Positions 3,101-63,100 of a stretch of 64,000 bases of DNA are shown here, piece by piece. The stretch comes from Amoebophrya sp. A120 (Eukaryota; Protista; Dinoflagellata). The stretch is taken from assembly GCA_905178155.1 (NCBI GenBank), contig CAJINV010000005.1, positions 4,940,256 to 5,004,255 on the forward strand, in the 5' to 3' direction. The notes under the pieces were generated by a model that saw nothing but the letters and a program-made list of their open reading frames with translations, was not told the DNA's origin and made no database searches. The position numbers and the translations under genes were made by a program. The first letter of the stretch is position 1. The number at the start of each line of letters is the position of its first letter.

Positions 3101-6100
3101 TTGGTCAGGACGGCGAAATTTGACTCGAATTTGGCGTATGACAGTTCCTATGGATTGCAAAAATGTCTGGGTCTGGAAGAATGGCAGGTCTGTCATGCTC
3201 TGCTAGCATGACTCCAAAGTCTGTCATGCTCGTTACCCAAAAGCCCCACTTTTCTGTCATGCTGAAACGCGGTTTGTCATGCAGAATACGTAACACCTAG
3301 CAAGTCAGAAACTTGTCATGCTGAGCCGTCACTTGTGCCGTCCTCAGGATTCGCCAACCAGCATTACAAGTTTCCAGACCCAGACACTTTTGCACTTGAT
3401 AGTTCCTCCATCGTGAGTTATGATTCGAAGTTAACGACATTCCTGATTTCCGACGGGATTTTCGGCAGTGCGAAAACGAACGGCGGGATTTCCATGTGCG
3501 ACATCGGCTGCTCGGATGCTTCGACGGATTTCTGCTACGACAAACTCGTCAGCGACGTGGAGAAGGGGACTGTTTCGAGTTCGGACTCCACTAAAACGTC
3601 TTCTGCTGGGGAGAAGTATTTGAGGAAAACCAGTTACAGTGTTGCTGAGTGCGGTCGGACGGCTGTGTTGTTTCAATCTTCGTTTCCAAACGATGTGAAC
3701 GCAGCGAAAGCGGGGAATTTAGAAGACTGTTTAACTTACTGCGATACGCTTGGCCGTGTGAATTGCGCGGGGGTGAAGTTCTTTACTTCCTCGGGGACAA
3801 AGAAGTGCTTTTTACAGAAGTTCTCGTCCAAGGATTTTTTCAGCCGCGCGAAGGTTTTGTCTTCTGCCCCGACCTGCGGATCCGATGTCGCGTGTTTCGA
3901 GAAGCAAACGACGGGGGAGAATGAACCACTGTACACGGAAATGTTGAACCCGGCAACAGTTCCGGCCAAGAAGGGGCTGTGCGCAACAGGGAGCCATACA
4001 AATTTTCGTCTGCTGCCGGACCTCCGCGGTAGGGTTAAGGGGAACAAGTACAATTGTATGGAGCTCTATGCAATACAAATTTCCCCGTACATGTACAACA
4101 TGCATCACAAATTTCACCAATTTGGAGCGTAAAACTTGTCATGCTAAACTAGGATCAAAGCCATGTTTTGTCATGCAGAGACCGCATCTGTACGTGTGCG
4201 GGAAATTTACTGTGCATAAGCTCTGCACAGAGTACGGTCCGGATTGCGTTGGCGTCGCGGGTGTTCAGTTTAACAACGGCAATGACGGAATGGAGGCGGA
4301 CGGGACCGTGTTTTGTGAGCTGGAACTCCGCACCGTCGCCAACCTGGATGACAAATACCTTTCCTGGGGCTTCACCCTGAACGATTCGGGTTTTTCTACC
4401 TCGGAACCCGCGGCGGCTCTCAACACCGTGCAGCCTCGGACGGAACCGGCTGAGTGCTGGAAAAAGACGGCGACTGCAACGACGACGAACGGCCCTTTCG
4501 CCTCCTTGTCGAAGTTGTATGAGCAGAAGATCTCCGTTTTGAAACAGCAAGCGCAGAAGGCTGTCATGCCGTTTTTGACTATGGACGCGAAGGATCTACC
4601 CCACCCGTTGCTCGGCCAGAAACTAAACCTCGCGAGTACCCCATTGGACACGTTCACGAATAGAATCGTCACTGCGTCCTCGAACTTCAGTCCGGGAACG
4701 TACTACCAATTCTTGGGGTACGGAAACGCAAAATCCTCTTCGAATGGTTTGGTTGTCTCCGGTTCTCGCAAGTTCTACACGACTTATCAAATGCAAAAGT
4801 GTCTGGGTCTGGAAGGATGCGAACTTGTGATGCGTGTTGCGGATCATACAAAAATCTGTGTTGCATGACTTGCTAAAGTTCCCCATTTCTAGCCATGCCG
4901 GGGGGGGGGGTATTTCTCATGCAGAATAGGCATCACCAAGCGGCTGCAGAACCTGTGATGCTAGGCCCTGCATTACAGACTTGGTGGAGCTTGGAAAAAA
5001 TGCATGACAGATACCGGAATTTTCCAGACCCAGACATTTTTGCATTTGATACGACTGGGAATGGTGCGATCGCGCGGAGTGACAACGGGGTGATGGAGTA
5101 CGAGTTGATTTACAAAAATTGCTTCAACTACTGCGACTACCTCGGAAAACATTGTCACGCGCTCTCGATTCAGGTTGATTTAACCGACGGGAGTACCGGG
5201 AAGTACCAGTGCTTTGTCATGCTGGCCTCCCAGCCGGCTGCTACTCTTCTTCCGACCGCGCCGGCCAACACGGTGACAACCACGACAACCACGACGTATC
5301 AAAATGAAAAATCCCTTGTCCCCATATTGAAAAGGAAATTTCTGTTGCTGGATTTGTGTACACAAATCAGCTCTGTCTTGCAGTGGGGTGCTGCAGGCAA
5401 AGCCTCAGCCTGCTGCGTAGGGGTGTTTTGATGTAGGTGCTTAGCATAAAAGCAGAGGCCTGCCGTATAGGCGCAGCAGCATAATTACAAACCGCCTCCA
5501 TAAAGCGGCGCACTCTTTGGATTTGCCCTCTTGCAAGAGAGACAGGATTTGTGGCCACAAATCAGCGTCGCAAATCTTTAGAAGCGTGCCCTTTCAACAG
5601 TATGGGGAGGGGGGATTTTTCCTCACAATACCACGGCTTTTTCCTTCCCAACCATCTCTGTCACACGAGAGCCGGACACCGTGGACTGGTACGACGCCAT
5701 GGCGTTTTTGCCGGATAACGTCGGCTATGAAATGCAAAAATGTCTGGGTCTGGAAACTTGTGATGCTAAAATGTGGATGATGGAAACAGTTCCGAATGCA
5801 ACCCAGCATGACAACTTTCCAGAATGCTTTCTCATAGTCAATCCGCATGAGAAACTGCGTTATTGCATGTACAAAAGAGGCTGCGACTTGTGTTGGTTAT
5901 GCAATACAGGTTTCCTAGCTAAGGAAAGCAAGCATTACAAGTTCCAATCTTCCAGACCCAGACATGTTTGCAATCCATATCGGCGGGTTTTACGGCGGCG
6001 TTTGTTCGGACAGCAGCACGGAGGACATATCCTGTGTGAAAACGTCCCCACCCCTACAGAGTTGTCATGCAGATTTGCGATGACAGGAAGATTTGTAATG

Positions 6101-9100
6101 CGCATGTCCATGCCATGCATCACTAATCGCGTTTTGGAATTGGTGATGCTGTAAACAGGATAAGCAGATGGATTTGTGATGCGATTGTCCTTGCTAACAT
6201 GCACTACACTACGGAGTGCAACTTGTCATGCGTGGCTCCCAAAACTTCTGGATTTGTGTTGCTAAGGTCCCAACTTGACTTTTGATGGGATGGGGACGTT
6301 TTTACATATGATAGGACAAGGCAACTGTCTACGACAAAATCTGCGATGAGGCGGATAGCTCTATCGCGGACTGCGACAGTACTACGCACGACTGCTGGGA
6401 GAAGCCGGATACACTCGCTTCCGATCTACTCCCCAGGGACGTTTTGAACGAAATCGTGCAGAATCCGGACTACACGAACAACGGCCGGGGCGCCGGCGAC
6501 AAGTACGAGCCGCATCAGTACAAGCGCATGAATCTCGGCAGTCCGGATTTCGTCTACGAATTTGTGCGGCTCGGGATCTGCGGGACAGCAAACTACGGCC
6601 AGTACAACAGCGGGACAACGATTGTGCCGGACTATTTGTGCAATGAACCGAACGGGGGGCTAGACACAAAGCTAGGCGTAGGGACGTACGACAAGGTGCA
6701 AAAACGGCAATACATCATCCGCCAGTGCGACAAGTTTGTGAAAACAAACAGCTACTGCGCCGGGGTGACCTGGAACCAGGAACCCGACATGACGCACGCG
6801 AGTCCCGGGTACGCTAGGCCCTACGGCAGCATGGAGCGCAACATGAACGCCATGGCCATGCCCGGTTGCTTTCCGAGGAGTGGGGGCGGCTGGAGTGCGC
6901 CGGTCGGGGATATCACCGGTGTGCGGAGTAGCGGCACCTCCGGCAACGTGGACGGCGGCGGGAACGTGTGCTGGCGCCACAAACCCGTGCCTTATTCCCC
7001 GACGTTGTCGAAATTCGGCCACTGGTACAGTAGGTTTGGGACCAACAAAGCCGGGTCTGGGTTTTGTACCGCACAGAATGCGAACCCGAACAGTGGATCT
7101 GTGGTGAAAATCGCAGAAAAAATTACGCTTGGCGAGTGTTTCAACTTGTGTGATGCGATGGGCGCGGATTGCAAGGGAATTTCGATGGACAAGAGAACGA
7201 AATACAGTCACACGTACCAGGGACAAACCTGGTCGGCCCGCGAAGATTCGGACGAAAAAAGGGATTGTTATTTGAAGTTCAATGGGAAGACTTGCCAACA
7301 ATTGAAGCAATCTAACACCGGTCCGAAAAACGAAAAAATCACCTGCGATAACCTCCCGGCTGGAATATGAACTGCAAAAGTATCGCACTCGTATAAATGC
7401 ATTACAAATCTTCTCAGCATGAGAAATAAAATTTGTAATGCTGATTTGCCTTGACAATGAAACTTGTAATGCAAGACCAGCATTTATACGAGTGCGATAC
7501 TTTTGCACAGGATATGGAACCCCGCCGATCAATTGTCCGCTCGGTTGGCATATCAAATGCAAAAGTGTCTGGGTCTGGAAGAATGCAACTTGTAATGCGT
7601 ATTTCAGAACACAGAAAAGTCTCTCATGCATACGTAGCAAAAGCTCCCACTTTTTGTCAGCAGAGTAGGGGACTTGTCATGCGGATTCGGCATTCCGGAA
7701 GGTTCTCGAAACCTGTGATGCTAGAGCTTCCATGCCAGACCTTCTGTGTCATGCAAAAACAGCATGACTCTTCCAGACCCAGACATTTTTACATTTGATA
7801 TGGCAGAAGAGAAAGGACCCCAACTTTTTGTGCCCAGGTCGGTACGGGTGCTCCGCGAGTACGTGTTGCGAGGAGTCGACTTGTGCGAATAACAACGGCG
7901 GAAAAGTCGCGTCTGCTAGTGGTTTCGATTGCGCGTTCCACGGGGCGACGGCGCTATGCGGGGTAGATCCGAAAACCATCCGGTGTGGGAGAAACGGGGA
8001 GGGTTGTACGGTGCAGGACTGCTGTTCTACTGTGGCCACTGTATTCTGTGTAAAAACATCCCCACCCCAGAGTTGTCATGCAATTCTGCATGCCAAAAAA
8101 GTTTCTGATGCGGAGCCCCATGAGAAGCATTTTCTACCCGTGTTTTGGAATTTCAATTTGTGATGCTATAATCAGCATGATGTGCTAGATTTGTGATGCT
8201 GCTGAACTACCTCAACAGGATAAGGATTACACTACGATGAGAAACTTGTCATGCGAGACAACGAAAGCTGCCTGGCTGATTTGTCTAGCAGCTTTCCCAT
8301 CTTGACTATGGGGTCGTGAGGACGTTTTCACTCAGGATAAGACCAATGCGGTAATTACGGGTGGGAGCTCGACTGCCCGGGCAGTGGCGGACAAGACTGC
8401 ACGAAAAATTTTGGTGAAATTGCCCAGGCGGCGGCATTATGGATTGCAAAAATGTCTGGGTCTGGAAGGATCCAACTTGTGATGCTGTCTTTGGATTCTA
8501 AAAAAATCTGCATTGCATGACCAGCAAGAGGAGGGGGAGGCCAGTTTGTGTTACATGGAGAGGGTATTTCTCATGCGGAATAGGCATCACAAAGCCCTCT
8601 AAAAATCTGTGATGCTAGGCCATGCGTTACAGGCTTCGTGGCTGATGCAGAATATGCATGACAAACCTTCCATTCTTCCAGATCCAGACATATTTGCAAT
8701 GCATAGGCAGGAGGGCAGGAAGTGGTGTTCGTGAAGAGGAATGTGTTTGGCGATCAATTGTGGGATAGCGGTTACATCGCGGATTTCTACAAGAGTTCAA
8801 CCCAGTTGACCTCCAAAGCAGAATCCACCAAATACGGCGCAAGTAGATCAATCATCTCCCTCGGGACGCACTATGCCGTCACGAAAGATGAGTGTGCGGA
8901 CGCGTGCAACCAGTTTGGGGACTCCTGCGACGGCTTCATGCGGTTTCCGAAGGACAGTGCGGATACGACGAAAGCGACCTGCGCGCTGCAGCTCCTGCAA
9001 CCCAGGCCGTTGCACTGCGCGTTCGATTTCGGGAATTCTGCGAATTCGCCTTCAATAACCTCCGTTCCCGCCGCGGCTGATGTGGCAGATGGGGAGGCGA

Positions 9101-12100
9101 AAATCATCGCCGCATTGGCGAACGCGGCGAGCAACAACTTCGGGAGTGCGGTTAGTATCGCGAATAGCGATTTCAACTGCTGGGTCCGGACGAAGAGGGA
9201 GATGAGTCCCTACTATTTGATCCCGGGTAAAACGATCGGGATGGAATCTGTTTCGAGTACTTCGACTTACGACGACGTCATGCGGTACCACGGGGTGACG
9301 CGGGGAATTTGGCCGGTCCCATCCCACGTCTACCACATCTCGAAGTTGAACCCAACGACGCATTTCTACACGCCGATTGGAGGCACAACCGGCGGGTCTT
9401 GCGTCGGCGGGTTGGGAAAGCACGTGAAATCCGCGTTCGCGACTGTCTCCGGACAGACTCCTTCTAGTCAAGACAGCTACGCGCCGATTCAAGGTTGCTT
9501 CGACGCTTGTGACGCGATTGCGGAGTGTCGAGGGGTGTCTGTGTTAGTCGCCGGGACGTATTACGAGACCGGGAGTACCACGATCAACACGGCTGACCGG
9601 GATGTTTCTTGCGAGTTGCATTTAACGTCCTGCGCGAGCTTGTTCGACAGCACGTGGTCGGACGCCTGTACGACCACTACCACCACCACAACCTCCACGA
9701 GCTCGACCACTACTACTTCCTCCACGACGAGCTCGACTACGACTAGTTCGACCACGACAGAAACCACGACTTCGACGGTAACCACGACCACCGTGACCAC
9801 CACCACCGTGACTACAACGTCGACCGTGACCACGACCGTGGCCGACGGCGGGGGCCGGCGGAGTCTCATCGCAGCAGGAAGTTCTACTTCCACCACGCGA
9901 ACGCTCAGTGAAGCGCAAGCCAGATCTCTCGCTGGTGAAGACGCGGATGCGGTGTTCACGGTCGATAGTAGCAGAACCGGCGGGGAGTGGCAGTGCTGGC
10001 AGAAGCGGAACTTTGACAAAGTGATTTCCGGCGACTTCGGGGATTTGGCGCCAGCAGGCGGGTTGATCAGTAAAACGACCGTCGGGACCTGGTTTGCAAA
10101 GGCGGAGAAAGAAAGCTCGCAAAACACATGCTTAAACAAAGCGTTAAACGCGAATAAAGATGCGATTCTGGACTCCCCGACTGGAAACGCCGGTACCGGG
10201 GAACGGCGCGCTCTACTAATCGGGAACAGCGAGTCCGGGGGTGCGCAGCGCTGCGCGGCTTTATGTGCGGACCACAAGGACTGCGTGTTATGGATTGCAA
10301 GTATGTCTGGGTCTGGAAGAATGCAAGATTTGTCATGCTTGTCTGGCATGACTGTTATCTCTGTGATGCTTAGGCGCAAAAAGATCTTCTTGCCTGTCGT
10401 GCAAAAATGGAGGCTGCTATGCGGAATACGCATCACGCAGGTGCTCAAAAACTTGTCATGCTTGATCACCTATTGCGGTGAGCTCATTATTCACAAACTT
10501 GCATCACAAGTTTCCAGACCCAGACATATTTGCATGTGATACGTGTCTATTGTGTCCGATGTGAAGGGCGCGGAGAAGTTCTGCGTGCTGATCTTGGATA
10601 TCTCGACTCCCTCAATTCCGAGTGCCAAGCAGGCGACTTGCTCGAGTTCGATCGAAGTGTTGAACACCGTGATCGCGGAGACCGGCGTGCAGTATAAGGA
10701 TTCCAGTACTACTACCGTGTTGCCAACATCGGTGAAAAAGTACACACTGTACAACGCGCCAGCAAGCTCTTTAGCCTCCGACAAACCCTTGACGACAACG
10801 GGCGGGTTTTTGGAGACGGTCGGATCTGCGGTTTCCTCCGTTACCTTCGACTTTACTGCCGAGTGGACGAATCTGAACAACGCGATGGCGGAAACGAGCT
10901 TTATCACGAAGGCTGTGAGCGCTTTGTCGTTTTTCCTCAAGCAAAACGTGCAAAGTACTTACACCTTCGCAACCCCGACGTTAGCCATGCCGACGTTGAG
11001 CATGGATACGTCCCTCGGAACGGTTCGGAATGATGCGAACATGATCAACTCTTTATCAAATTTGTTCGTCTCCGACCGGTACCCGGTGGCGAAGGTCTAC
11101 GCTTTGCAGCAGTTGGACGGGAACAAATTGAACACTGTGGTTTCCTTGAAAATCCAAATCGGGTTTGACAGTGCGGATATTGCGTTGTGGAACGAGATTC
11201 GGGGTTCTTCCATGGATAGTGGATCTTCCGCTCCAGGCGCCACGAAATTTGCCAAGTTATTGGAAACCTTCCGTCTTGCCTTAGAGTCGACTTTGGATTC
11301 CGCGATCTCGGGGAAAACCATTGTCCTCGGGGGGCCAGACTTGGTGTCCGGGTTTTTCAATTCGAATAGTGAAATAACCGTGAGTTTCCCCGTGTCTGCT
11401 GGTTCGGAATCAGTTTCGGATAACCAGATCGTGACGAAAGTTCTTGAAACTTTGACGAACTGCGACAATGGATCCACTTTCTTGAAGACCATATGCATTG
11501 CAAATGTGTCTGAGTCTGGAAACTTGTGATGCAAGGAAGGGAATAGTTTGCATATTGGACTGCGCTGCCAAGCATGACAAGTTTTTCCGTTGTTCTCAGT
11601 TGCGCATTCCGCATGAGAAACTCCATTTTTTCATGACAGTCAAGAGGAGCTCTTCGAGGCCACGCAATACAGAGCTTAGAGTCATGCCAGACTGGCATGA
11701 CAAATATCGCACTCTTCTGGACCCAGACATTTTTGCATTTGATAAACCACCGTGAAAAACCAGTGGCAAACCAATATCGCAGCGGTTTCGGACATCGCGG
11801 GCTTGACGCTATCCTGAGCAAAAACATCCCCACGCCAGAGTTGTCATGCGAATCTGCATGCCTAAAATTTCTCTCTTGCGGAGCCCCATCAGACGCATTC
11901 TCCAGTGGTGTGGTGAAATTTTTGTATCTCGAATCAGCATGAAGAGCTAGGTTTGTGATGCTGCTGCACTAGCTAAACGGGACCCTATTGCGAGCCCAAA
12001 CTTGTCATGCGCAGCAGAAAAAGCTTGTTGATTTGTCTTGCAGATTTCCCTTCTTCACTATGGGTTGGGGAAGTTTTTGCACAGGATAGACGCTCACTTC

Positions 12101-15100
12101 TGTGTCCCTCGCTGCTGATCCGGTTCTCGCTGCGAGTATGGCGGGGAGAATGGAAATCGCCAGTGCCGCGAAGACGGTCGGTGAACTCCGCTCTGCTTTT
12201 GCTTCTGCTACGGCGAAGGCGGGGCTGGCTGTTTCTGCTCAGGATGTGTTTCTGAAGAAGGACACAACTGCTTCCACCTCTTCGGATTCCATCTACGACT
12301 GGATTTTCCCGTATCGCAAGAAAAAAGTGTTACAGTTGCACATTGTGTTGCAGGCCAAGCAAGACAGACAAGCTCTGTCATGCCGGATATGCATAGGAGC
12401 ATCGTTCCATAGGTGTTTTCCCGTCGGATTTCTGCATGACATGTTTTCCTTCTCATGCTGACAAATTTGTGTTGCTAAATTGACTACAAATGTGTAACTG
12501 TAACACTTTTTTCGTGGGATATCCCGGTGTCTTTTCCCAATACGGAAACCGATTTCTACTCCTTTTCGTACAACTTCCTCACTGCGAGTGACTCCGAGAA
12601 CATCGACACAACTTCTCCAATTGCTGTGTTTCTGAAGGAGCAGCTCGGGGGGGGCATTGCGGTGAAAATCTTTCAGGAATCGGTGAAGCAAACCGCCTAT
12701 GTCCAGGTGAAGGCTGGATTGGCTGGTGCTAGTTTCACCGGTAACCGGATGATGCTCAGGTTTGCGGCCGCAGGGGTTGCGGAGGGGGAGCAGAGTTCTA
12801 TCGGAAAGATCGCGGGAGAAGATTCCTATTACGGGATCGACGTTCCGAGCTGCAAGGCACTGAGTGATGCAACGGCGAACGCCCGGACGGTTTTTGTCCC
12901 CGCGGTGCGGAGTGCGAAGTCGTTTGAGAACGTGCTTGTTGCAAGTAGTTCTGGTTCATCCAGCACTCCCGCCATCCAGATCGGTTCTGTCTTGAACAAG
13001 TTCACCTCCCCAACGCACAACTTCGCCGGCGTTCTGGCGAAATTGCAGCAGAACTACGCTAAATCCGGAACCCTGTCCGCGCAACTTAGTGGGAGTTTGA
13101 ACCTCGGGGGGACTAGCAACAGTGTGGTCAGTTTAGAACCCGGTTTGGTCACTTCTGGTGTTGGGGAAGAAGATTTCTTAACGGCAGCGAGTCTAAAACA
13201 TTCTCAATTCCTCTATATCGAGTTTTTGTTCAAACTCGAGGAGGACACGGAAAACACCTACGCTTCCCACACGGACGCCGAATGTGCAGCGAAACTCTCC
13301 ACTGCGATCGAAAACTGCTTCAAGGAAGCGAAATTCTTCGGCAGTCTTTTCGCAAAAGGCCAGAACATTGCGGAAGCAAGTCCACAAATCTTCAAGATCG
13401 CAGCAACCAAGAAGCCGATGGAACAAGAAAAAGTCTTCATCGTCCACTTGATTCTGAAAAACGCGAAACCAAATTCCGTCGCGACAATCCTGAACGAGTT
13501 CCGGAAGGAAGCGGTTTTCAACCCCGCGGACAATTCAACTTTGACAGTTCTCGAAAGGTCGTTGAAGGACGAGAACTTTCTGTCCGCCCAAGAGTTGACC
13601 GCTGGAGCGTTTCAACCTGTCGCTTCTACGGGGTCTTACAGCCGAACTGCGGTGGTTTCGAACGCGATCCACGGGTCGCTGACGATCACGCACAAGGTGA
13701 GAGAAACTGGTTGTTTGGAAGACGCGGTTTCCCAATTCTTGACGAAAGCTATGGACAGCGGGTTCGCCGAACCAATTCCTTTTGTCGCGGTGGAGTGCGA
13801 TAAAACGGTTGCTTCCGACACCACTGCGGTCTCTACTGTCTGTGGTTTCGCGATCCCGACGAAGAAGACGAGTTTTCAGTACCAGCAGTATTTTACTTCC
13901 AACGGGGAAACCTCCCGGAAGAACTACTTCGGGAATCTGCTCAGTGCGTTGATCGCTTCCCCGACTGGAATTGTGTACAAGAATTACAATGGAAACGTCG
14001 CTGCTGATGGAACGAACGTGCCGACTAGTGATGAGAAAGTTTCCACTTTCTCTTCCCTCGGAGCCGACGTGAAACACTTAGTTTTCGCGGAATCGCCGGA
14101 ATACTCGTTAACCAAACTCGTGACCACTATGCCGGGCGACGATAATGTCGAGAAGAAGTCGAAGCTGACCGCAGTTTTGGCTTCTTCTTTATCCAAAACG
14201 CTACCTGCGGCGGTTAAGCAGTTCGTTTCTCTCTCCACTTCCGACGCGAACGCGCTTCTGACGAAGCATAATTCCATTGTCGGGCCTTTGACAGGGACGG
14301 TAGCCGATTCGGTGTCTTTTGTCTTCCCCATCCCGCTCATCCACTATCCGAGTTCCAACACCAACGCGGTTAAAACCGTCAGCATCTTCAACGCGTTTGA
14401 AGACAGTGACAATTGTGAAAATCAGTGGAAAACGGAGATGAAGAAAATTGTCGCTTTGGAAAATTCGAACAGTGTGAAAGTCGAAGCAACGTCGACGTAT
14501 GATTCCGCGAAGTACTCCGCGACTGGGCAAGATAAATTAATCGGTCCGGCGGAAGCGAGCGCCTCTTCCGCAACGACCAGTCTGCAGACCACTTTCATCA
14601 CCTTCCAGGGAACTTTCACGGCGATTGACTTCTTCCAGGGGGAAATCGCCGCTGCGAAGAAGGAGTTGGAGAAGGATAGTTTTGTCGAGGGAATTCTCCA
14701 GAGCGCTGTTTTTGAAGTGCTAACGTCACCGAGTAACGGGAGTGGGTTGCAATATGTCTCCAACCAGGTGAAGGACAGTTTGAATCCACCATTCACCGCG
14801 CACTTTAAAAAGTTGGAGAATGTCGGGGTCGTTCTCCAGCCGGACGTCCCCACTGTGGATGCCGATCCGAGTACTTACCCGTACCCGACCACCAAAGATG
14901 CGAACCGGGGGAGAAGTTTCACGGTTTACATTCGCGTGGATGGGCCTCTGTTCTCGAAGGGGGAGAGAGAATCGACTTTCACAAGATTAGCACAGTCTCT
15001 CACTTCTCACTCGTCCGGCCACACTTTCGCGAGTTTGGTGAAAGCGGAGGTGAATGCGAATTCCATACTGCAGATATGATTTGTAAAAACGTCCCCAGCC

Positions 15101-51100: not shown

Positions 51101-54100
51101 AATAATACGCCAGATAATCGCTTGAATGAGCCCTACCATGCATGACTAGCATGACAGACATGACCCATTTCCTTGTCTCGCATCACAGATAAACGCTAAC
51201 ACACTTTTTTCCTCGCGATACCCGGCTTCGAACGGCTACCAATACGACTATTGGTGGGAAAAGCGGCAACCCGCGCTGGGGAAGTCCTATTCCCCGAACA
51301 CGAGGACTCTAGACATGGAAAGGTACTACCACCAGCAGTACTACGAGACGATGAAGCCCTATGGGCCGACCGTGTGCTTCGCGCGCTGCGACGCCCCCGG
51401 CGTGGGGAGCGAGTGCGCGGTGAAGTACGATCGGAAGAAGTGGTGGGATGGGACTCTCTGGTCCGAGCCGGCGAAGAGGCCGTGGCAAGCGTCCACAACC
51501 TACACCTACGAGTGGGACATGGGCGAGAAGGACACGGACTGCATGTCGCACGAGTGGGTTTCGATCCCCAACTCCATGATTCCCAGTTCCAACAACGGCA
51601 TTGCCTTCGATGATACAATCAATGATGGAAAGCCAACAATGACTCGAGATTTCTGCCAAGATCTCTGCTACGGGTCCTTCAAATACGCCGACGTCACTGG
51701 GAAGAAGCAGTCGCGCTGCCGTGCCATCGCGTTTGACGAAACAAGCAACAAATGCCGGCTGATGATGCAGAAGCAGGGGGGTTCCAACCCCTTAGCTCCC
51801 GCAAATGCGATCGCGACGCAGTTTGAACTACTCTGGCCGAAGAACTTCGGAAAAGTGGATCTCGTCACGAACGCGTTTATTTGTGACGCGGTGGCGAACC
51901 CTTCCACCTGCTACAACGCGGTAGCGGCCAGGGGTGTGATCAAGGATTCCATGCAGCTAGGTTCAAGCTCCGCGAACGTCGAAGCAGTCGCGTTTCCGCC
52001 GGCTGTGATGCAAATCGGGTCCAAATCTTCCCCCGCAACTAGTCGGTCCAACGTGCGAATTGGTGCGTCGAAATCGGTGGAAAAAAGAAACCAGGACAGC
52101 TACATTGAAGCAAGGTTTGTTCTCAACCCTGGTGGTACCGGGACTTTGGAACCCGCAATGGAGCAAGAGCTGATCGAGAAGATGAAAATTTCCGCGTATC
52201 TGACTGTCGTGAAGCAGAAGTTCCTCTTCCCGATGAACTTAGTCGACACGGAATACCATTTCGATGCAACAAACTTTCAGTCCGCGGTGGATTCCGGAAT
52301 TCTCTCCCTGAACCGGATCTCCGTGGTTTTAGGCGAGTCTTCCGCCACCGCTGCGTACCCGGAAAGGACTTTCGTGATTACCTATCACTTCCAAACGGCG
52401 GACTCTGGGATTGTGGGGGAGGTCCTGCGGTTTGTGAACCGGGATAGTTATTTGAAGACACTTACAGACGAGTTGAAGGAGCAGTGTAAATCAAATACCG
52501 CGCTAGCTTCGACTTTGATCCCGGTGCGGCCGCCGGGGGTCACGGTTCCGGACACGATCACGAAGCGGAAGGACAATTTGATTACCGCGAATTTGCTTTC
52601 CTTCAGTGAGCAGTCGGGAATGAAGATGTTTTTGCAAGTGACGATCGAAAATGCGGCTGATTCCAAGCAGAAGGTGGAGAGAATTCTCCGCCGGAAGTTG
52701 GTCGGCTCTAAAGACAACAACTGGATCGCGCGGTCTATCGCGACTGGGTTGAACTCCAGACTCGGGTTGGGCTTGACCAGCAACCACGTGGCGGTTCGAA
52801 TCAAGGAAATCACGCTATCCGCAGCGAAAACCGGCACAGCACTCGATGGAATATCAACTGTAAAAATGTCTGGGTCTGGAACATTCTGACACTTGTCATG
52901 CACGTTTTGCATGTGCCCTGATGTCTGTGATGCGTGCCCTAGCATCACAGATTTTTTGAGAGCTTCTTGTTGCCTATTCCGCATGACAAATGCCCTCGCC
53001 ACGTAGCAAAAATTACATTTCTTTTGGTACTCATGCAATACAGATTTTTCTGGAATCCAAATGCAGCATCACAAGTTGCATTCTTCCAGACCCAGACATT
53101 TTTACATTTGATACGGAACGACCACAGTCGACTGCATGGATGCGGAGATTTTCTTCTCCTTCTCCATCCCATCCGCCGCACCGAGTCTGCAACTCTGGTT
53201 CAGCCGAGACGGGGCAGCCAAGCAGTCCGCGGTATTGGATGCGATTGATGCGAGCGTCGCAACGCTGTCGACTTACAAGACGACGAAGAAGTCGGAAATT
53301 ACCGGTTCTGTGAAGCAAACCCGGTTTTTAGAAACCGTGGTCGACGCGGATTTATCCTTAAACTACAAGGACGTCAACGCGTTTGACAACGCTGGGGTGT
53401 TTGAGAAGTTGATTTCTGTTGCTGCGGATTATCGAATGCAAATGAGTCTGGGTCTGGAAGATTGCGAGACTTGTCATGCTGATCTGGCATGACCCTTAAC
53501 TCTGTATTGCGTAGCCACGAACAGCCTCTCGCTCCTGTCATGCAAAAACGCGGTTTCTCATGTGGAATACGCAGCACAGAAGCGCGGAAAAACTTGTCAT
53601 GCTTGGCGGCGCATTACAGTGCATTTGTTATTGACGGACTTGCATCACAAGTTTCCAGACCCAGATATATTTGCAGTGCATACGGAGGTGGCGTTCGCAA
53701 ACCGGAATTCCGGCAGCTTCAGGTTGGATTCTAGTACCTCTGCTTCTGCCGAGGTAAAGCAGATTTCCGATTTGTTGACCTCCCTCGACATGGAACTGCC
53801 GATAGCGAGCGAGTTGATAGTTGGGTTTGACGCGCGGGAGCATTCGCCTGTCACGGATGACATGCTCTGTTCGTTCGACGCCACAACACCGGTGAGTCGG
53901 AAGCGCAAGGTGGTTTTGACCCTTCCCTTCACCTGGGAAGAGCATTCCACGGTCTCCGGGCAGCAGGAGTCGTTTGTGAAAACGTTCGAGTCGTTCGTTG
54001 GATTGTTCTATGAGGAAGAAGGCGGGACTGCGACCATAATGGCAAACCACTTGAAAGCGGCGTTGAACATGCTTTTAGATGGTGAAAAGGTCATGACGGT

Positions 54101-57100
54101 GGCGAATTCTGTCGCGCCGGCGGCTTCGAATTCGCAAGTCACGGGCTTGACCTGGAAGGGGTACAAGAGCAGTAGTAGTTCTTCTAGTTCATCTTCCTCT
54201 TCTCTGCGGGCTCTGACCAGCTTGGAAGGGAGATTTATCAAATGCAAAAATGTCTGGGTCTGGAAGATTCTGAGATTTGTCACGCAGTTTTTCCAAGCTC
54301 CACCGAGTCTGGAATGCAGGGCCTAGCATCACAGGGTCCGCAGCCCCTTCGTGATGCCTGTTCTGCATGAGAAATGCCCTCTCAGCATGGCCAGAAGTAC
54401 GCACCTTTTGCAAGTCACGCAGCACAGATTTTTGTATGATCCGCAACATGCATCACAAGTTCGCATCCTTCCAGACCCAGACGTATTTGCAATGCATAAG
54501 ATTTGAACAACAGCAAGAACAACTCGATTTCGCCCTCGAGCACATGGATCTTTTGGACGAGAACTACGAGGAAACCGCGGCTCTCCGGGAGTTATCCTCT
54601 TCTTCTACTTCCACCGCCGCTGTTGAGCCAAATTGGTCCGCGATGGCGGCAACAACGGATCTGTCCCTCCAGTCGAAACCCCGCGCGTTCTTTCTGGAAG
54701 TGCCGGTGGACTTGACTGTGGTGCATTCTCTGACGCAATTCTACAGCAAGGAATACATTTCGATTCTCTTGAAACAAGCGACGTTCGATTTAGTCGAGGC
54801 AGAAATCGTGAATGTCGGATCTAGTAGTGAAACCGTCAGAACCACTGCTTTGTCCGCCTGGAAGCAGAAATTGGAAAAACTAACCGGAACGGTTTCCGCC
54901 GGGAGTCCTCGAACCGGGGGGCAGAACAGAGTCGATATCGATTACGAAAACGACCCGGTTTTGCTCGTCGATTGCCGGTTTGATATCACCAGGTCGACGT
55001 CCCTTTCTGATGCTGCTTCCACCGATAAGGATTTCGCAGTGAAAGAAACAGCAATGGTTTTCCTGCAACTCCAGCAAGCGGACTCGTTCGTGATTGGACA
55101 AATCTTGACGATTATGGCCGATCAAACGAAGTTGCTGGCGAAACTACAGGGGCAAACCTCTTTAGGTTCGACTGGCGCGACCATCTTCCCAGAGTTGAAA
55201 ATCCTCTCCCGGGATGGTCTCCAGCAGGTCCCCGCAGGGGATACGGTCATCCCTTCCCTCGCCGTTTCGAAACTTCGGCTCCCCGTCATCGCTGACTTGT
55301 TAATCGACGAAAACGCCATGTTGAAGCCAAACGGCACGGTGGTTGCCACGGAAGTCGCGGACGCGTTCCGGGAGTTGCTGGGGGATGTGTTGACAACTGA
55401 TTCTTTCACGTTACCCGCTTCCTCCCTCATCGCAGAATCTTCGACGCAGGCGGCGGGTTCGGTTTACAACCAGTTTTTGTTCGATTTGTACGTGCCGATA
55501 AGTCTGTCTTCTTCTGTTTTGTCTGCGGAGAAATTGGCGTTTTTGAAATCCTCTAACGCTGCGGAATTCGTGAGACAGAAGTTGAACTCTGGGTTCGAAT
55601 CCGATAATTACACTTCCGGTCGCGTGAAACAATTGGTGATTAAAACCGGGGGGAGTTCTGTCCAGCAGGATTTCATCTCGACGCATTTTAAACTAACTCC
55701 CGCCCCGAACCCGGAAGTTTTCAAGGCGGTTGCGGCGTTCCAATCGGTCTTCGCGTCTGTGTTTTCCTCGTTGAAGGACGGAATACAATTCCCTCGGTCG
55801 GAGATGGTGGTTGTCGCGCCGGAAAAGAACCTCGCGGTGGACAAATTCTCCATCGTGATGCCGAGCAAGAGTTTGCTTTCGTACAGTGATGCAGAGTTGA
55901 TATCTGCACTGCAACAAACGGACAATCTGGCGAACTCCGTCACCCCTCGGTTAGAAGGGGTGGGAATTTCTCTATCCGCCGCTTACCCCCCGCCGAGTGG
56001 GACCTTGAAGTTGACGGATACAGCGATCTTACCGACCAGTTCGAAGGACGTTGCGACTTTGAACAAAAACTCGGGTCTGAACTCCAACGGCGTTTTGGAA
56101 TTAACCGCCGGGATTTCAGTTTTACAAATCGACTTCCGGGTGCTGTTGGCGAACAGCGAGAGTAGTTCTCCTGAGATGAAAACCGCTCGGCAGAAGTTGG
56201 GTTTTAGCGATAAATCGAAAGTCGGTGGTTTGTTGGAAGAACTGAAGACGTGGTTTAGGGCTGCGATCAAGGAATGTCTTGATTCAGGCTCCACCGCGGA
56301 AGTCGCGACGGTCGTTTCTTCCTCTAAGGTGAAGTCCGGGAAAGTATTGACGGGTTCGAAGACGATTCAGTCTAACAAACTCACCCTTTCCGTCCGGCTT
56401 TATACCGGGAAGGAGAGCAATGCGGAGGATGCTGCAAAATCCGTTCTCCAACTCTCCCAGATGCTGAATAAAGGAACAAGCAAATCCACTTGCGTCTTGG
56501 ATAAAGTGAACACGAACCTGCAGACTTTCACGACCTTATCTTCGTCGGATGCTAGTGCTGAGATCCTAACCGACTTCCCGATTGCTCTTCCAGTGATCCA
56601 GGGAAGAGGGTTGATTTCCGCCGGGGCAGGTTCCGCTGTCGTTACCGCGGTGAAGAAATCAGGGACTGGAGAAAATCCAGTTTCCCCACTAGCGAAAGCT
56701 TTATCCGATGCGTTAGCTGCTGCCGACGCGGGTAACGTCCCGGCTGAGATGATCACGGTGGACGTTCTCGCGAAAGCAACGCAAACCAGCACTAAAGCGC
56801 AGTTCTCCTTCGCGATTCCAGGTGCTTTCGGCCCGGAAGCTGACTTTTTATTGAAGTCCAATCCGCCCGAAACGCTGAAATTTCTGCTGGAGAAGAGCTT
56901 GAAGCTGCGGCTGAAGGAGAACACTGTGACTGGTGTTTCCACCACCGATGCGGAGAATGTGAAAATCGAACTCGCTTCTCTCAACGGGGCGAAGCAGCAA
57001 GACACGGTGTTTTTAACCGGGTTGGTGGAGATCCAGGAACAAACGAGTTCTGGAAATATTGACCCTGTGACAACTGCTTCCGCGTTGTCTTCCGGGTTGC

Positions 57101-60100
57101 GAGCCGTTGTTTCCTCCGCTTTGGAGAAGGAGGGTTTGAAGCTCGTTGCCCCCTCGGTTTCTTTCACGGATTCTGTTGTGAAAGCAACTCTTGTATCCCA
57201 AGGAAAAACTGTTTCACTGTAAACTTGTAATGCAGAAATTGTATCTCAGAAGTGCTTGTCTTGCTACACATGCAAGACAATGGATTTTTAGCGGTGTTGT
57301 CTCTTGGAAATCTCGCATAGCAAATTTTCTTTGTCATGCAGGACAAACTTGTGATGCAAAACTTGCAAAATCCTTAAAGTGAAACACTTTTTTCGTACGA
57401 TATCTTGCCGGTATGACTTCTGCGGAACAGGTGGATTCTTACCGGGTCAGCAACGTGATCGTCGCAGAAGTGACGAGTGCTGCGGATGTGAGTGGCGCGA
57501 CTGGGAAAAAGCTGTACTATTACATTGTGCCGTTGAACCTGCAGGAGCGGAATTTTGGAACAACGGCTGGTGGAGTAGCTTCTTCTACTCCCGTCGCTTA
57601 CTCCAATGTCGGAGGCGCTTCCCTCGCGAAGTTGCAAAATGTAACAAACAGCTTCGCTGCGGATTTCGACACGGAGTTCAACAAAACCTTCTCCGTGCTC
57701 GCGAACGCAGAAGGATTCGAACTGACCACGATAGTATCTTCTTCTGATGGTGGAGCTAGTAGTGCAACAAGTTCTTCCTCAACTGGTGCGGAAATCTCCC
57801 TCGCGAAGCAATTCGAGAAGAGCCTGCTGCAGCAACCGACCAGTTCGTCCCTCTCGCCGCTGTTTCTATCCTGAGTAAAAACGTACCCACACCAGAGTCA
57901 AGATGGGGATTTTGCAACGCAAACCTAGAACTTTTGGGGGTCACGCATCACAAATTGCAGTCCGTAGTTTAGTGCAGGTTCGCAAGGCCAGCTGCATCAG
58001 AAATCGATCTGCTCATCCTGTTTACAGCATTACAAATTCCAAAACACGACTAAAAATGCCTCTCCTGGCGATGCGCATTACAAATGTTCCTGTCATTGCA
58101 AATCTGCATGACAACTCTGGTGTGGGTACGTTTTTACTCAGGATAATTTCTCGAGACGAAGTTCATGGTCCAAGCAGACCTTTTGGACAACACTCTGGAC
58201 ATGAAGGACAAGCTATCACACAGAAAAAAGCAGGCAGCGCATGTTTGTAATGCAAAAACAAATAGACAGAAGAATCTGTCATGGGTTAATACCCCATAGC
58301 GTTCTGCTCAGGACATGCAATACAGATTTCTTTGTCTATTTATTTTTGCATTACAAATCTGACGCGTCTGCTTTTTTCTGTGTGATACAAGCAAACCAAG
58401 CTCGCGTTCGACAAAGTCGTCACCTCCCGGTTCCGCAGCGCAGTAGCCCACGCGTTGAAAGAAACGCTAGAGACTGAGAAGAAGGACCAACCGCTTTTAC
58501 CCGTTTCCTGCTTGATCGGAAAAGGGACGGAATCAAGAGAGCAAGCAGTAACCTCCACCACGACCACCACGACCAACCCAAATTGCTACCAGGAGAATCT
58601 GGCTTCTTTCCTTCCCGGGAGGTGGGAACTCTACATGTACAAGGGCGGGAGTGCTGGGAACGGCTACAATGACATGCGAATCGGGAAAAATGTGAATGGT
58701 CTGGGCACGCTCTGCCCGCACCCGACGAGTGGGAATGCAAAGATGGCGGAAGCGCTGTTCAACGAAAAGTGCTTCCGGCAAATTCTCGTCGTCGGCGGCG
58801 ACAAGACCTGGGGCCGAATTTGGTCGAAAGACGGGTCCTGCATCCCAGGCACCGACGCGTTTGGCACGGGTGCGAAGGGAACGATGAAAGATCGTTACAG
58901 CTCGGAGTGGAGCAGCAAGCCCGCTGGGGAGGTGGTGGATCTGCAAATAAAGCATGCGCACCACGGACCTATGATTGGCGATACCAACACGGGCAGTCAG
59001 TGGATGTGGCGGTGTAATAGCTACCCGAATTGCGCGCAGACCGATACGGGAAAAGTGGCTGGGGGTACCGGCCTGACGCTGTCGACCACCCTCGGGCGGC
59101 TGGTCACGGTGCCCGGCCAGGATCCCACCCAGGCAACGATGAGTTGGAACTGGTACGGGAGTCAGTTGTATGGTGTTGAGCCGGGCCCGTCCCCGTTCAT
59201 CCGGCAGCACCGGCCGATGACCTGTGTGGTTCAGGTGGAGCAGAGTGATGCTTCCGACCAGAATTACCTGCAGACGGTTATCGGGTTGTTGTCCGAAGCG
59301 GGTGTTGGGGACGCGGCGAGCAGTACTCTGAAGGAAAAAAGAGATTTGTTCTTGACCAATCTGGAAGTCCACTACAAGCAATTTCCACCCACGACGACCA
59401 CCACCCCGGCCGGGTATGTGGCGCCGCCCCCGCCGAGGTTCTGCCCGGCGGAGTTCGTCTGCCCGGGCGGGATGACGGTGAAGGACGGTGATGTAAAACT
59501 CTATCAGTGCCGGTCCCCGTATGGTTGCGTGGCGCTCGATTGCTGCAAAGTATCGGAGAAGAGTGTGTTTCAAGACGTGGCGTTTTCTGGAAAAATGGCG
59601 GAGTTTTTGGACGCGAACCACGTACTCGGTTTCAAGTACAAAACTGGGTTTGATAAAGAACAGATCTTTTCCACCGGTAGAGGTATCCTATGTAAAAACA
59701 CCCCCACCCCAGAGTTGTCATGCAAATCTGCATGCTGAGAATGTCTCTCATGCGGAGCCCCATGAGAAGCATTTTTTATTCGCGTTTGGAAATTTGTCAT
59801 GCTCCAATCAACATGGGAAACCGGATCTGTGATGCTGCTGAACTACCTCAAACAGCACTACACTACGAGCCCAAATCTGTCATGCAAAACAGCCAACACT
59901 TGTGGATCTGTCTAGCCGATTCCCCATCTTGACTATGGGGTGGGGACGTTTTTACATAGGATAAGAGGATCGTCGAGTTCATCTGCTGCGGAATTCCTCT
60001 CTTCCACCACCGCTTTCTTAGAGTTCGACGCGAAGAAGGTACTGGATGCGTACTTCACTGCCCACCAGTTCACATCTTCGAACTCCCCGGTGACTTTGTC

Positions 60101-63100
60101 CACAACGGATGCAGGGAAAATCGAATATGAGAGCATCAAACACTTCTCCACGATCGAAAACGATTTTTATCTGAACCACGGTGGTCTTGCCGTGCAAAAC
60201 CAGCTCCGAATGAAATCCCAGACGGATATCGACGCGATTTTCGCCGATTCCGCTCTGGAAATTCAGTTCACGCCAATCAGAGCGATCCTCAATTCCGCTT
60301 TCGGCGAGGCGTTAATGGATTTGACCGGTGTGGAGAATCTCACGCCGTTCCACGTGAACAGCAGACTGAGGAAGATCACGGGAACAGGTGCGGATCTGAA
60401 GGTTGAGCTGGCGGTTTCGATCCCCTACGCCACCCCGGAGTCCGGCTTTTTGAAGTTGATCTTCAAGAAGCTGGACAGTACTAGTACCGCGGGAGGTACT
60501 ACCAGCGCAGATAACTCCGTTTTCGGCAGCCGGATGAACAAAGCGTTAGCGAAGACGTTTGGGATGAGCGACCCAAATTCTGCGGATTTTTATCCTGTGT
60601 AAAAACGTCCCCACCCCAGAGTTGTCATGCAGATCTGCAATTGCAGGAACATTTGTAATGCGCGTCCCCAAGGGAGGCATTTCCAATCGTGTTTTGGCAT
60701 TTGTAATGCTGCGAACAGGATAAGCAGATGGATTTGTGATGCGGCCGTTCTTGCTAACATGCACTACACTACGGACTGCAACTTGTCATGCGTGGGTCCC
60801 AAAACTTCTGGATTTGTGTTGCTACGTTCCCAACTTGACTATGGGGTGGGGACGTTTTTGCATATGATAACTTCGGAATCAAAATCACCGAAGACGCGAA
60901 GGAAACGCAATTTGTGACCGCGAAGATAAGATTATCGCCGGAAGTGAAGGAGTCGCAGGAACTAACAAGTACGATTCCCAGTACTGGCGCAAATCTCAAG
61001 CAGTCTGCTTTCTCCGACGATTCCATGCTGTCGGTAGCTCAGGCTGCGGGGAGAAGTGCTGTGTTGGACATCCTGGGGCAGGCGGGGTCGAAGGTGAGCA
61101 CGCCGTGGTCTTTGTTGGCCATTCCGGAGGCGGTGCAGAATGAAGCTGGTTCATCTTCTACCGCCTCCTCTTCCCTGCGGAGCCTGGGTAGTAGCGCGTC
61201 TGAGCTGTTCGACTCCAGTAGTGCGCTGGTGGCGACCGGGCAGGAACTTGTTGCTCCGGCTGCGAAGAAGTGCTCGTCGCAGAGCGACCTTTTCTCCTCC
61301 ACCGGAGCGCTTCTCTTCGACAGTGACGTCACCACCGCGTGCACAGAAACCGAAACCACCCACCCGTTAGATCCGCGCGGCGACCACCCGAGTCCGATGC
61401 CGATCGACAGTTCATCCGCTGCTGCGTTGCGCGAACTTACGGCAAGTACTAGTGCAACAAGCAGTGCACAAGCGCAGAAGCGGCAGTACGACCTGAGACT
61501 GATCCTCCCATTGTCCGAGGAGATTTTCGACCCGGCAAACATCCAGTCGATCATAACCGCGTTCACTTCTGCCGGCAACAACTCCCCCTTCTACGGAAAG
61601 TTCGCCACAGAAATCTCCACCAACTTCCTCCCGCCGAAGCAACTGGCGGATGGGTCGACCAAGCCCGTGTTCGCTTCCACGAGCACAAATGATGTGATCA
61701 ACGTTTTGCTCCCAACCGCGTCTTCCTCCTCCGCGGATTTGTCTGGGATTACTGTTTCCGCAGATGTGCCCGCGCAATTTGGCATCAGCTACTTGCAGGT
61801 GAAGCTCGGCTTGATTTCCGAGCAAGGGATCCCGGCAGTCGCGTTGCAGAAGGCGTTTTTATTGGCGTGCAAATCGGAACTAGTAGAAAACATCATGTTT
61901 CCGAACAACTACAAGATCGATCAAGTCTCCGTGACCCACATCGGCCAGTCCGCGGCGGAGAACAAGAAGGTGCAAGACTTGTATTCTGCAGTTCTCTACA
62001 TCATATGAGAGTGCACAACTCCCCCTCCTCCTCATTTGTCATGCAAAATCCCAAATCCATATCCAGCTGCTGCCTTGTAGCACTGTTTGCATGACAAATT
62101 CTGGAAGCCCAAACAGTACTACACTGGGCACATAGATTTGTCATGCATAGGCTCCATGTGCGCTGGTGTTTGTATTGCTGTTCATGCCATACAAATGGGG
62201 GCGAGGGGGAGTTGGGCACTGTCATACCTCACCGGAGCGTCCCACAACGAGATTGGGCGGATCCAGAGTCTGTTCGTCCCGATGGTGGTTATGAAAGTGC
62301 ACAACTCCCCCTCCCCCTCATTTGTCATGCAAAATGCCTAAGTTACGCCGGGGTTCTTGGCAATGTTTGCATGACAAGTTCTAGCAGCCCAAATAGCACT
62401 ACAATCCTGCCCAAACTTGTCATGCAAAACCGGTAATCTTGCTGATGCTTGTATTGTTGTTCATGCAATACAAATGAGGGGGAGGGGGAGTTGTGCACTT
62501 TCATGGTGGTGAAGGGAAAAACGGAAGACGCGGCAAGTGATGGCCTCGCGAAGCAGTTTTTACTGAAGATTGGGGAGAATCTGGCGGATGAGCTGCAGAT
62601 CACAGACAGTGCGAAATATCCTCAGACCTTCACCGCTGACTTCGCCGATCCGGTCGCCCAGTCGATCGCGAAGATTGAGTTACAAAACGCTTTACCACCA
62701 CCCCCACACGACGCCGAAAAATGCGGCTACGACCCGAACCCCTCGATTCTTCCGGGCAAGTGGTTCCTCTACATGTACAAGCACGGACAGAATAAAGCGG
62801 CCAACGGCTGGAATGACATGCGGTTTGGGAAAAACGTTAATGGGTTAAATTCCCTCTGCCCGCACCCGACAAGTGGGAATGCGAAAATGTCGGAAGCGTT
62901 ATTCGACGCGTCCTGCTTCACGGAGCTCCTCGCGGTCGGTGGCACCGGCGCGTGGGCGAAAATCTGGCGCAAGGACGGGGCTTGTATCCCCGCGAAAGAC
63001 GCGTTTGGCGAGGGAGAGAAGCGGACGAACGGCTTCTACAGCATTGAGTTTTCCACGGGCTACAAGGGCGACGCGATTGTGAAGAACTTGTACCACGGAC

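Follow-up and report, generated by a model that had tools for sequence, protein, structure and literature searches.

Third-codon-position excess among mismatched target site duplications of introner elements in a giant gene of Amoebophrya sp. A120

Introduction

A stretch of 64,000 nt from the dinoflagellate Amoebophrya sp. A120 (contig CAJINV010000005.1 of GenBank assembly GCA_905178155.1, positions 4,940,256 to 5,004,255; hereafter referred to as the window) displays on its + strand long open stretches that are split by short repeated elements. These elements carry inverted repeats at their ends, are typically flanked by a 5-bp target site duplication (TSD), and interrupt a giant gene. When one copy's worth of the duplication is discarded from the mRNA together with the element, why should the mismatches that distinguish both copies follow the codon position? 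An earlier reading of the letters of the window (the sequence-only reading) had found 12, 6 and 1 mismatches at codon positions 3, 1 and 2, respectively, and reasoned that a freely drifting intronic copy should yield mismatches independent of codon position. It therefore proposed that either both copies can end up in the mRNA via a sliding junction, giving rise to micro-isoforms, or that the intronic copy is frozen while the exonic copy evolves.

That premise was incomplete, as it omitted the expressed partner of each mismatch. With a probability of roughly 0.6, we attribute the third-position excess to ordinary purifying selection on the base that the mRNA retains, with the mismatches themselves being substitutions that struck the TSD after insertion. 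Changes of the expressed base would then persist mainly if synonymous or conservative, while changes of the discarded base would contribute a smaller share that is blind to codon position. Because every mismatch includes an expressed base, the sum of these selected and blind changes would be enriched at position 3.

Results

TSD mismatches are enriched at third codon positions of a single open frame

The elements were delimited while ignoring their flanks, as any TAT…ATA segment of 100 to 1500 nt of which the first and last 28 nt were complementary at 19 or more of the 28 positions. Across the whole window this inverted-repeat scan yielded 61 elements, none of them false, and seven more were located at leftover breaks of the open reading frame (ORF), bringing the total to 68 complete elements resembling miniature inverted-repeat transposable elements (MITEs), with TAT…ATA ends, an inverted repeat of 25 to 30 nt and a 5-bp TSD. 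Gapped inverted-repeat detection misplaced the boundaries and was not used, and a library of termini contributed one further element when tried on the window. After excision of the 68 elements with 5 nt each, one open frame of 15,137 codons remained, from which every TSD base can be assigned its codon position. No stop codon entered this frame when the downstream TSD copy was kept throughout, while keeping the upstream copy introduced exactly one TGA, at element 8438 (elements are referred to by the position of their first nucleotide).

Both TSD copies were identical in 49 of the 68 elements and differed by one or two mismatches in 17 (19 mismatches in total), with the remaining two being left out of the tallies because of grossly differing flanks (CACTG/AGACC at 8042 and GAGAT/ATTAT at 49323). 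The mismatches were distributed over codon positions 3, 1 and 2 as 12:6:1, against 117:106:107 available sites (chi-square p = 0.015 and Monte-Carlo p = 0.013 versus uniform). The 17 elements, 19 mismatches and 12:6:1 split of the sequence-only reading were thus reproduced exactly with flank-blind boundaries and an ORF-fixed frame, and its count of ten synonymous mismatches was confirmed (11 when the third-position change at 44266 is counted on its own). The coordinates it had listed (5297, 11492, 15075 and further) do correspond to the elements concerned, but are element starts and not mismatch sites. Likewise, the replacements it had named as conservative are as stated (S/A, F/L, V/L, T/A, D/E, I/L and A/G), but the mismatch at 8438 (GGCAT/GGCAG), where the upstream T would lead to TGA, was not among them.

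At 19 mismatches the window sample is small, and a second pattern in that same sample, a gradient over the positions within the TSD, proved to be due to chance (see below). A chance split or an artefact of repeat delimitation is nevertheless highly improbable, given that the boundaries stem from inverted-repeat complementarity alone, that the frame stems from one ORF of 15,137 codons, and that the excess was replicated in independent loci at three thresholds. Moreover, within 44000–63999 contigs from the DNA-like run X1 did not differ from the window at any TSD site, although X1 may itself be the source sample.

The excess recurs in independent loci

Independent loci were taken as 151 stretches among the matches listed for an 18-nt inverted-repeat motif in a metagenome collection. 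They contain the same element families, none of them overlaps the window, and 80 have 1500-nt flanks. While exact copies of this arm motif are present in at least 151 stretches of this one collection, only 18 matches were found in 596 Gb of prokaryote genomes and three single matches in viral contigs, both being at about chance level. Locus elements of all families were delimited by the same flank-blind rule, after which strand and frame were called from the open length plus a codon-usage log-odds score. When trained on the loci only and applied to pieces of the window, this frame caller made no wrong call in 204–212 calls on 3-kb pieces, and none in 94–120 calls on 618-nt pieces.

With strict thresholds, 133 framed elements displayed mismatches at codon positions 1, 2 and 3 in a ratio of 5:4:17 (p = 0.0075 versus uniform). 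Medium thresholds yielded 6:5:18 in 153 framed elements (p = 0.012), and loose thresholds 7:5:22 in 165 (p = 0.0017). Elements with three or more mismatches were dropped from these counts (4, 9 and 9 elements for the strict, medium and loose thresholds, respectively). A simpler first pass over the loci gave 4:3:13 in 115 elements (p = 0.029). The uniform distribution elsewhere, which the sequence-only reading had named as the outcome that would overturn it, was therefore not what the independent loci displayed.

Of the 232 unique locus elements, 162 could be framed at medium thresholds, and in 9 of these the flanks differ at three or more of the five positions. Since this is far above the expectation from gradual decay, such elements constitute a separate class, which may consist of recombinants, end deletions or wrong boundaries.

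RNA-like contigs place the cut inside the duplicated pentamer

RNA-like contigs from runs X3, X4 and X7, which all derive from one sample and of which the RNA label is a guess, were placed on the region 56900–62600. All seven elements in this region were skipped by exactly the length of the element plus 5 nt (214, 284, 179, 285, 284, 228 and 221 nt), and in all seven the number of letters fitting either side of the junction, as mapped, equaled the number computed from the sequence. Removal of the other 61 elements is suggested by the single ORF that their excision creates.

In three of the skipped elements the TSD copies are mismatched, which reveals the retained base. At element 57867, contigs join 57862 to 58147 and position 1 of the pentamer is the upstream G (side of 47 letters in X3 and of 23 in X4). 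At element 60591, a contig joins 60587 to 60872, with pentamer positions 1 and 2 matching the upstream copy but position 5 the downstream one, thus yielding a hybrid pentamer. This junction rests on one X3 contig with a depth of 4.5 and a shorter side of 20 letters. At element 62004, one contig (X4, side of 53 letters) joins 62000 to 62229, and position 2 is the upstream A (Ile). To these can be added element 8438, where the downstream G is the expressed base because the upstream T would give a TGA stop. If one register applies to all elements, the cut is located after pentamer position 2, 3 or 4, which corresponds to 1–3 nt upstream of the left TAT and 2–4 nt downstream of the right ATA. With the cut inside the pentamer, one base of every duplicated pair is expressed and its partner discarded.

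These junctions bear directly on the sliding junction, in which the cut register would vary among transcripts, placing both copies under coding selection and creating micro-isoforms. In the window and first-pass loci together, 23 of the 39 discarded variants would be synonymous if expressed and most are synonymous or conservative, as sliding would predict. However, no second junction was detected for any of the seven elements in contigs of the three runs, the coordinates agree for the five of seven elements where two runs overlap, and the contigs continue unbroken through the junctions. In addition, the discarded T at 8438 would create a stop codon, and all observed registers are compatible with one fixed cut after position 2–4. 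Contigs drop rare forms, so that isoforms of low frequency would be missed. Altogether, we consider a sliding junction very improbable. The check that had been proposed for it, namely to look at which base is retained at mismatched sites, did reveal the base and narrow the register in the contigs, but uncovered no site at which both bases occur. Both copies can thus be said to contribute to the mRNA in the sense of a hybrid pentamer within one transcript, whereas the contigs gave no sign of alternative isoforms.

With regard to removal at the DNA level, as for the germline-limited DNA of ciliates, run X1, termed DNA-like, contains the elements (0.89 of sampled words) and has contigs that extend from an exon into an element, while the runs that skip them are RNA by guess only. 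Mapping that included X1 over 20 kb was swamped by repeat-to-repeat joints and left two usable piece ends only. The raw-read RNA runs X11 and X12 yielded only 2 and 26 partial reads on 44000–63999 and were uninformative for the gene, and the estuary metatranscriptome runs X8–X10, with shares of 0.07–0.13, were not used as evidence.

Mismatches probably arise after insertion

The number of mismatches per element increased from 0.08 to 0.35 with decay of the inverted repeat (Spearman –0.17, p = 0.006, n = 274), which is the trend expected of substitutions after insertion, but not of irregular duplication upon insertion. Both this trend and the disappearance of the outer excess in the loci led us to reject TSDs of variable length, or filler bases, as their source. 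An effect of the position within the TSD was considered as well, since the distribution of 6:5:1:1:6 over the five positions in the window suggested protection near the cut. It did not replicate, with folded outer:mid:centre counts in the loci of 19:17:8, where 17.6:17.6:8.8 would be expected (p = 0.90), and overall counts of 31:23:9 (p = 0.28). Finally, 177 perfect sites revealed no target-site or TSD sequence preference (all positions below 0.05 bit), and the codon effect is therefore not mimicked by target choice.

The discarded copy seems to change less than its neutral share

Whether one selected and one free copy suffice was examined with a conservative null, in which the discarded copy and the expressed third positions are fully neutral and the expressed second positions immovable. 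This null expects the mismatch rate at position 2 to be at least 0.5 times that at position 3, while the observed per-site rates were 0.032, 0.018 and 0.077 for codon positions 1, 2 and 3, respectively. The position-2 deficit had a p of 0.05 in the window, 0.14–0.29 in the loci and 0.04 for both combined, and the null of one selected and one free copy is thus not firmly rejected. We also fitted a model with one parameter, the ratio of the discarded copy's rate to the neutral rate, assuming an omega of 0.1–0.4 on the expressed copy.

Several observations weigh against attributing the excess to selection on the expressed base alone. The combined data contain 6 position-2 mismatches out of 48, where a neutral discarded copy leads by hand calculation to an expectation of about 11–12. 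The maximum likelihood estimate (MLE) of the relative rate of the discarded copy was 0–0.16 in the window, the loci and both combined, and a likelihood-ratio test against a rate of 1 yielded p = 0.009–0.017 for the combined data and 0.035–0.086 for the loci (strict and medium thresholds). Furthermore, no outgroup, allele or paralogue was found by which mismatches could be polarised, nor any pair of loci of at least 450 nt at 85–99.9% identity, so that the changed copy cannot be assigned. On the side of the transcripts, the depth of the contigs is low (2.8–4.5), they share a single sample and its guessed RNA label, the key double-mismatch junction is the one contig with the 20-letter side, and register information covers only 4 of the 17 mismatched elements. 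Altogether, the discarded copy consistently seems to change less than its neutral share, which is suggestive and unproven.

This deficit might in turn indicate that the discarded half of the TSD is itself constrained, and effectively frozen, while synonymous changes of the expressed base pass. The constraint could originate from an excision machinery that places its cuts by means of either the identity of the pentamers or the bases lying between cut and stem, with selection removing changes of the discarded bases. The low MLE in all samples points in this direction, with a combined upper 95% limit of 0.5–1.0, as does the lowest per-site rate being that of position 2 (0.018 versus 0.077 at position 3). 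In contrast, a required match between both copies would penalise changes in either copy equally, leaving the asymmetry unexplained by that alone. The pentamers are arbitrary and without positional preference, and thus offer no fixed motif to conserve, while the would-be stop at 8438 testifies that discarded bases do change. Moreover, elements with mismatched copies are still spliced (three out of three in the contigs), and the sparing of central TSD positions seen in the window is absent from the loci. Significance also fades once the GC-rich third position (GC content of 0.49, 0.45 and 0.67 at codon positions 1, 2 and 3) is granted a higher mutability, as G/C sites mutating two to three times faster weakened the test to p = 0.03–0.05 for the combined data and 0.04–0.17 for the loci at the three thresholds. 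The frozen intronic copy of the sequence-only reading therefore has the direction of the estimate on its side, with p values of only 0.009–0.05 (combined) and 0.035–0.17 (loci), and we regard a constrained discarded half as an unlikely though serious candidate. Its more specific form, in which a non-spliceosomal excision places the two cuts by matching the pentamers at the base of the hairpin and so holds the discarded half constant, is doubtful.

Exon-side gene conversion from element-free alleles or paralogues might overwrite the exon flank as far as the insertion point, and so bring standing coding polymorphism, in which third-position changes abound, into the expressed half only, which by reasoning would also push the relative rate of the discarded copy below 1 without any constraint from splicing. 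No element-free allele or paralogue was seen for any locus, and such conversion appears improbable. Ordinary purifying selection on the expressed base thus remains our preferred account of the excess.

Structure and families of the elements

All but two of the elements have TAT as left and ATA as right end, the exceptions being 62290, which ends in ATG, and 49323, of which the left end is ambiguous. As element 62290 is still skipped precisely, the terminal A is apparently not essential. Left arms define several families, namely B (TATCAAATGCAAAAATGTCTGGGTCTGGAA-like), A, C and D, plus smaller ones. Element length ranges from 149 to 1123 nt with a median of 262 (n = 68), arm complementarity reaches at least 19 of 28 positions in 61 of the 68 elements, and direct repeats at the borders measure 5 nt wherever the flanks can be interpreted (66 elements). 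Element 60591, the one element that was folded, paired its terminal arms at –110.5 kcal/mol (z = –4.67 versus shuffles). With terminal inverted repeats (TIRs), a fixed 5-bp TSD, a small size without coding capacity and many copies, the elements display the traits of MITEs, or non-autonomous TIR DNA transposons.

They do not conform to canonical U2-type GT-AG introns, as 65 of the 68 elements are unreadable that way in any register. A GT/GC-AG reading is possible for 3 of the 68 elements in any of six registers, and for 2 of the 68 (43414–43678 and 59684–59963) within the registers allowed by the RNA.

A few elements stand out. Element 17310–18432, which belongs to family B and has a perfect ACAGC duplication, measures 1123 nt or four times the usual length, and may have grown by internal expansion or by a nested insertion. 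Element 26555–26810 represents a one-off family with an inverted repeat of about 40 nt and a perfect GTGTC duplication, and contains an internal tandem duplication, the left side having two copies of the motif TCAAATCGGTTACCA that are mirrored on the right. The unrelated flanks of element 8042 may reflect, as one possibility, recombination between two elements with deletion of the intervening exon. For element 49323, an alternative would be a perfect ATTAT TSD that overlaps the left TAT, in which case one TAT may have been lost from TATTAT; either reading agrees with the end of an RNA-like contig piece at 49320. Insertion phase appears uneven, with TSD position 1 falling on codon position 1, 2 or 3 in 16, 26 and 26 elements, respectively. 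At the start of the window, positions 1–187 represent the right end of a truncated family-A element, from which it follows that the gene and its array of elements extend further upstream. Coordinates of all complete elements are listed in Table 1.

Table 1. Coding region and elements in the window. Ranges in the second column include the flanking pentamers for the individually listed elements; letters in brackets denote families.
Feature	Position	Strand	Description
Coding region	106..63999	+	15,137 codons open after removal of 68 elements + 5 nt each
5297-5630 (A)	5292..5635	+	TSD CGACG/CCACG; position 2, codon position 3, synonymous Thr
8042-8339 (C)	8037..8344	+	Flanks CACTG/AGACC unrelated; element+5 removal keeps frame
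8438-8705 (B)	8433..8710	+	TSD GGCAT/GGCAG; position 5, codon position 1
11492-11744 (B)	11487..11749	+	TSD GACCA/AACCA; position 1, codon position 3, synonymous Lys
15075-15356 (C)	15070..15361	+	TSD GCAGA/TCAGA; position 1, codon position 3, synonymous Leu
20967-21229 (B)	20962..21234	+	TSD GTAGC/GTAGT; position 5, codon position 3, synonymous Ser
22263-22515 (B)	22258..22520	+	TSD TCCGA/GCCGA; position 1, codon position 1, Ser/Ala
25523-25835 (A)	25518..25840	+	TSD CGTGG/CATGG; position 2, codon position 3, synonymous Ala
27302-27557 (B)	27297..27562	+	TSD GTTCA/GCTCA; position 2, codon position 1, Phe/Leu
29466-29719 (B)	29461..29724	+	TSD GTTGG/CTTGG; position 1, codon position 1, Val/Leu
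35248-35396 (E)	35243..35401	+	TSD GTCTT/GTTTT; position 3, codon position 3, synonymous Val
44266-44422	44261..44427	+	TSD CGGCA/CGGGG; positions 4+5, codon positions 2+3, Ala/Gly
49323-49479	49318..49484	+	Flanks GAGAT/ATTAT; left out of tallies
51012-51220 (D)	51007..51225	+	TSD CCCGA/CCCGG; position 5, codon position 1, Thr/Ala
52852-53113 (B)	52847..53118	+	TSD TGGAA/CGGAA; position 1, codon position 3, synonymous Asp
53430-53682 (B)	53425..53687	+	TSD CGGAT/CGGAG; position 5, codon position 3, Asp/Glu
57194-57402 (D)	57189..57407	+	Perfect TSD TCTTG; contig skip 214 = 209+5 (X3, X7)
57867-58145 (C)	57862..58150	+	TSD GTTTC/ATTTC; position 1, codon position 3, synonymous; skip 284
58214-58387 (F)	58209..58392	+	Perfect TSD CAAGC; contig skip 179 = 174+5 (X3, X4)
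59684-59963 (C)	59679..59968	+	Perfect TSD AGAGG; contig skip 285 = 280+5; one of 3 GT/GC-AG-readable elements
60591-60869 (C)	60586..60874	+	TSD ATTTT/ACTTC; positions 2+5, both codon position 3, synonymous; skip 284
62004-62226 (G)	61999..62231	+	TSD CATCA/CCTCA; position 2, codon position 1, Ile/Leu; skip 228
62290-62505 (G)	62285..62510	+	Right end ATG; perfect TSD GTGGT; skip 221 = 216+5 (X4, X7)
Other 45 perfect-TSD elements	within 239..54498	+	Start-end in the next five rows
Perfect-TSD elements (a)	239-491, 596-874, 935-1140, 2779-3089, 3149-3401, 4067-4218, 4785-5051, 5726-5979, 6028-6313	+	
Perfect-TSD elements (b)	7366-7514, 7551-7800, 10289-10541, 11810-12088, 12312-12521, 15412-15659, 15908-16228, 16424-16751, 16816-17029	+	
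Perfect-TSD elements (c)	17310-18432, 18775-19053, 22565-22829, 23653-23974, 24562-24851, 26149-26416, 26555-26810, 26867-27118, 27956-28217	+	
Perfect-TSD elements (d)	29917-30168, 30218-30520, 31432-31695, 32066-32318, 37446-37708, 37772-38035, 40413-40645, 40727-40987, 41150-41411	+	
Perfect-TSD elements (e)	41512-41764, 42183-42465, 43043-43364, 43414-43678, 43739-43947, 45924-46185, 49672-49950, 50562-50762, 54236-54498	+	

The host gene is an orphan

The giant coding region comprises 45.4 kb of exons, or at least 15,137 codons, and continues past the end of the window. A Pfam scan of 12 large exons revealed a Laminin_G_3 domain (E = 3.5e-16) in the exon at 19056–20960 plus one weak PAN match, and no other family. 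Three protein searches found no homologues of the gene, the broadest of them returning one fragment of 474 residues that is 100% identical and contained in a single exon. The giant gene is thus an orphan.

Discussion

Introner elements of A120 have been described as hairpin-forming insertions with direct repeats of 3–5 nt at the exon/intron boundaries and no GT-AG borders, which belong to many families, of which tens of copies can reside in a single gene, and of which the inverted repeat consists of TAT, about 7 variable nt and at least 3 A (Farhat et al. 2021, BMC Biol 19:1, PMC7789003); diverse TIR and other introners have been reported in A120 as well (PMC12130899). In the window, this arm rule holds for 65 of the 68 left arms and 65 of the 68 right arms. 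The window elements share the features described by Farhat et al. and nothing structural differs, the direct repeat being 3–5 nt in the published introners and 5 nt in all 66 interpretable window elements. The window elements therefore fit the published A120 introner description, and the codon-position pattern belongs to a known kind of element. Where the legend of Fig. 3 in PMC7789003 gives the position of the intron border relative to the hairpin as unknown, the mismatched duplications locate the cut within the repeat of 5 nt. Apart from supplementary Figs S19–S25 of PMC7789003, which fall outside this statement, we did not find the cut register within the duplication stated in the published A120 accounts covered here, and our search found no publication that brings codon position together with introner and target site duplication.

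Like the window elements, the introners found in Micromonas pusilla and Aureococcus and those known more generally (PMC11282704) are MITE-like, with TIR and TSD, and have their frame restored by removal of one TSD's worth of sequence. Those introners, however, are spliceosomal, with GT/GC-AG borders of which one site is borne by the element and the other co-opted from the TSD, whereas only 3 of the 68 window elements can be read in that way. The nonconventional introns of euglenids (PMC12501133, PMC11282704) resemble the window elements in their non-canonical borders, their inverted repeats that pair the ends, their direct repeats that blur the junction, their suspected MITE origin and a removal machinery that is unknown. 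They differ by CAG/CTG at +4 to +6 and –8 to –6 and by a variable repeat length, and have been reported to be excised as circular RNA. Finally, the MITE-derived introns of Fritillaria borealis (PMC11282704) share a transposon origin, inverted repeats, a TSD and non-GT-AG ends, but AG-AC and AG-AT ends dominate and an adapted spliceosome is suspected there, whereas the consensus of the window elements is limited to TAT…ATA.

Under purifying selection on the expressed base, removal could proceed as follows. Through its inverted repeat, the pre-mRNA would form a hairpin in which the two pentamers come to lie close to each other, upon which a non-GT-AG activity that does not depend on sequence would make its cuts at set distances from the base of the stem. 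By itself, the 12:6:1 tally needs no new mechanism. For the question of how hairpin introns can be excised in the absence of GT-AG signals, mismatched duplications are valuable as they break the ambiguity of the junction that perfect repeats create. Extended to the approximately 30,000 elements of such a genome and combined with raw RNA reads, a mismatch-based reading would fix the register to the nucleotide and would settle whether the discarded bases are neutral, thereby distinguishing a ruler-type endonuclease from a repeat-guided mechanism. Should matching of the pentamers prove true, mismatched duplications would constitute both a genome-wide ruler of the cut register and a record of an undescribed, repeat-guided RNA excision.

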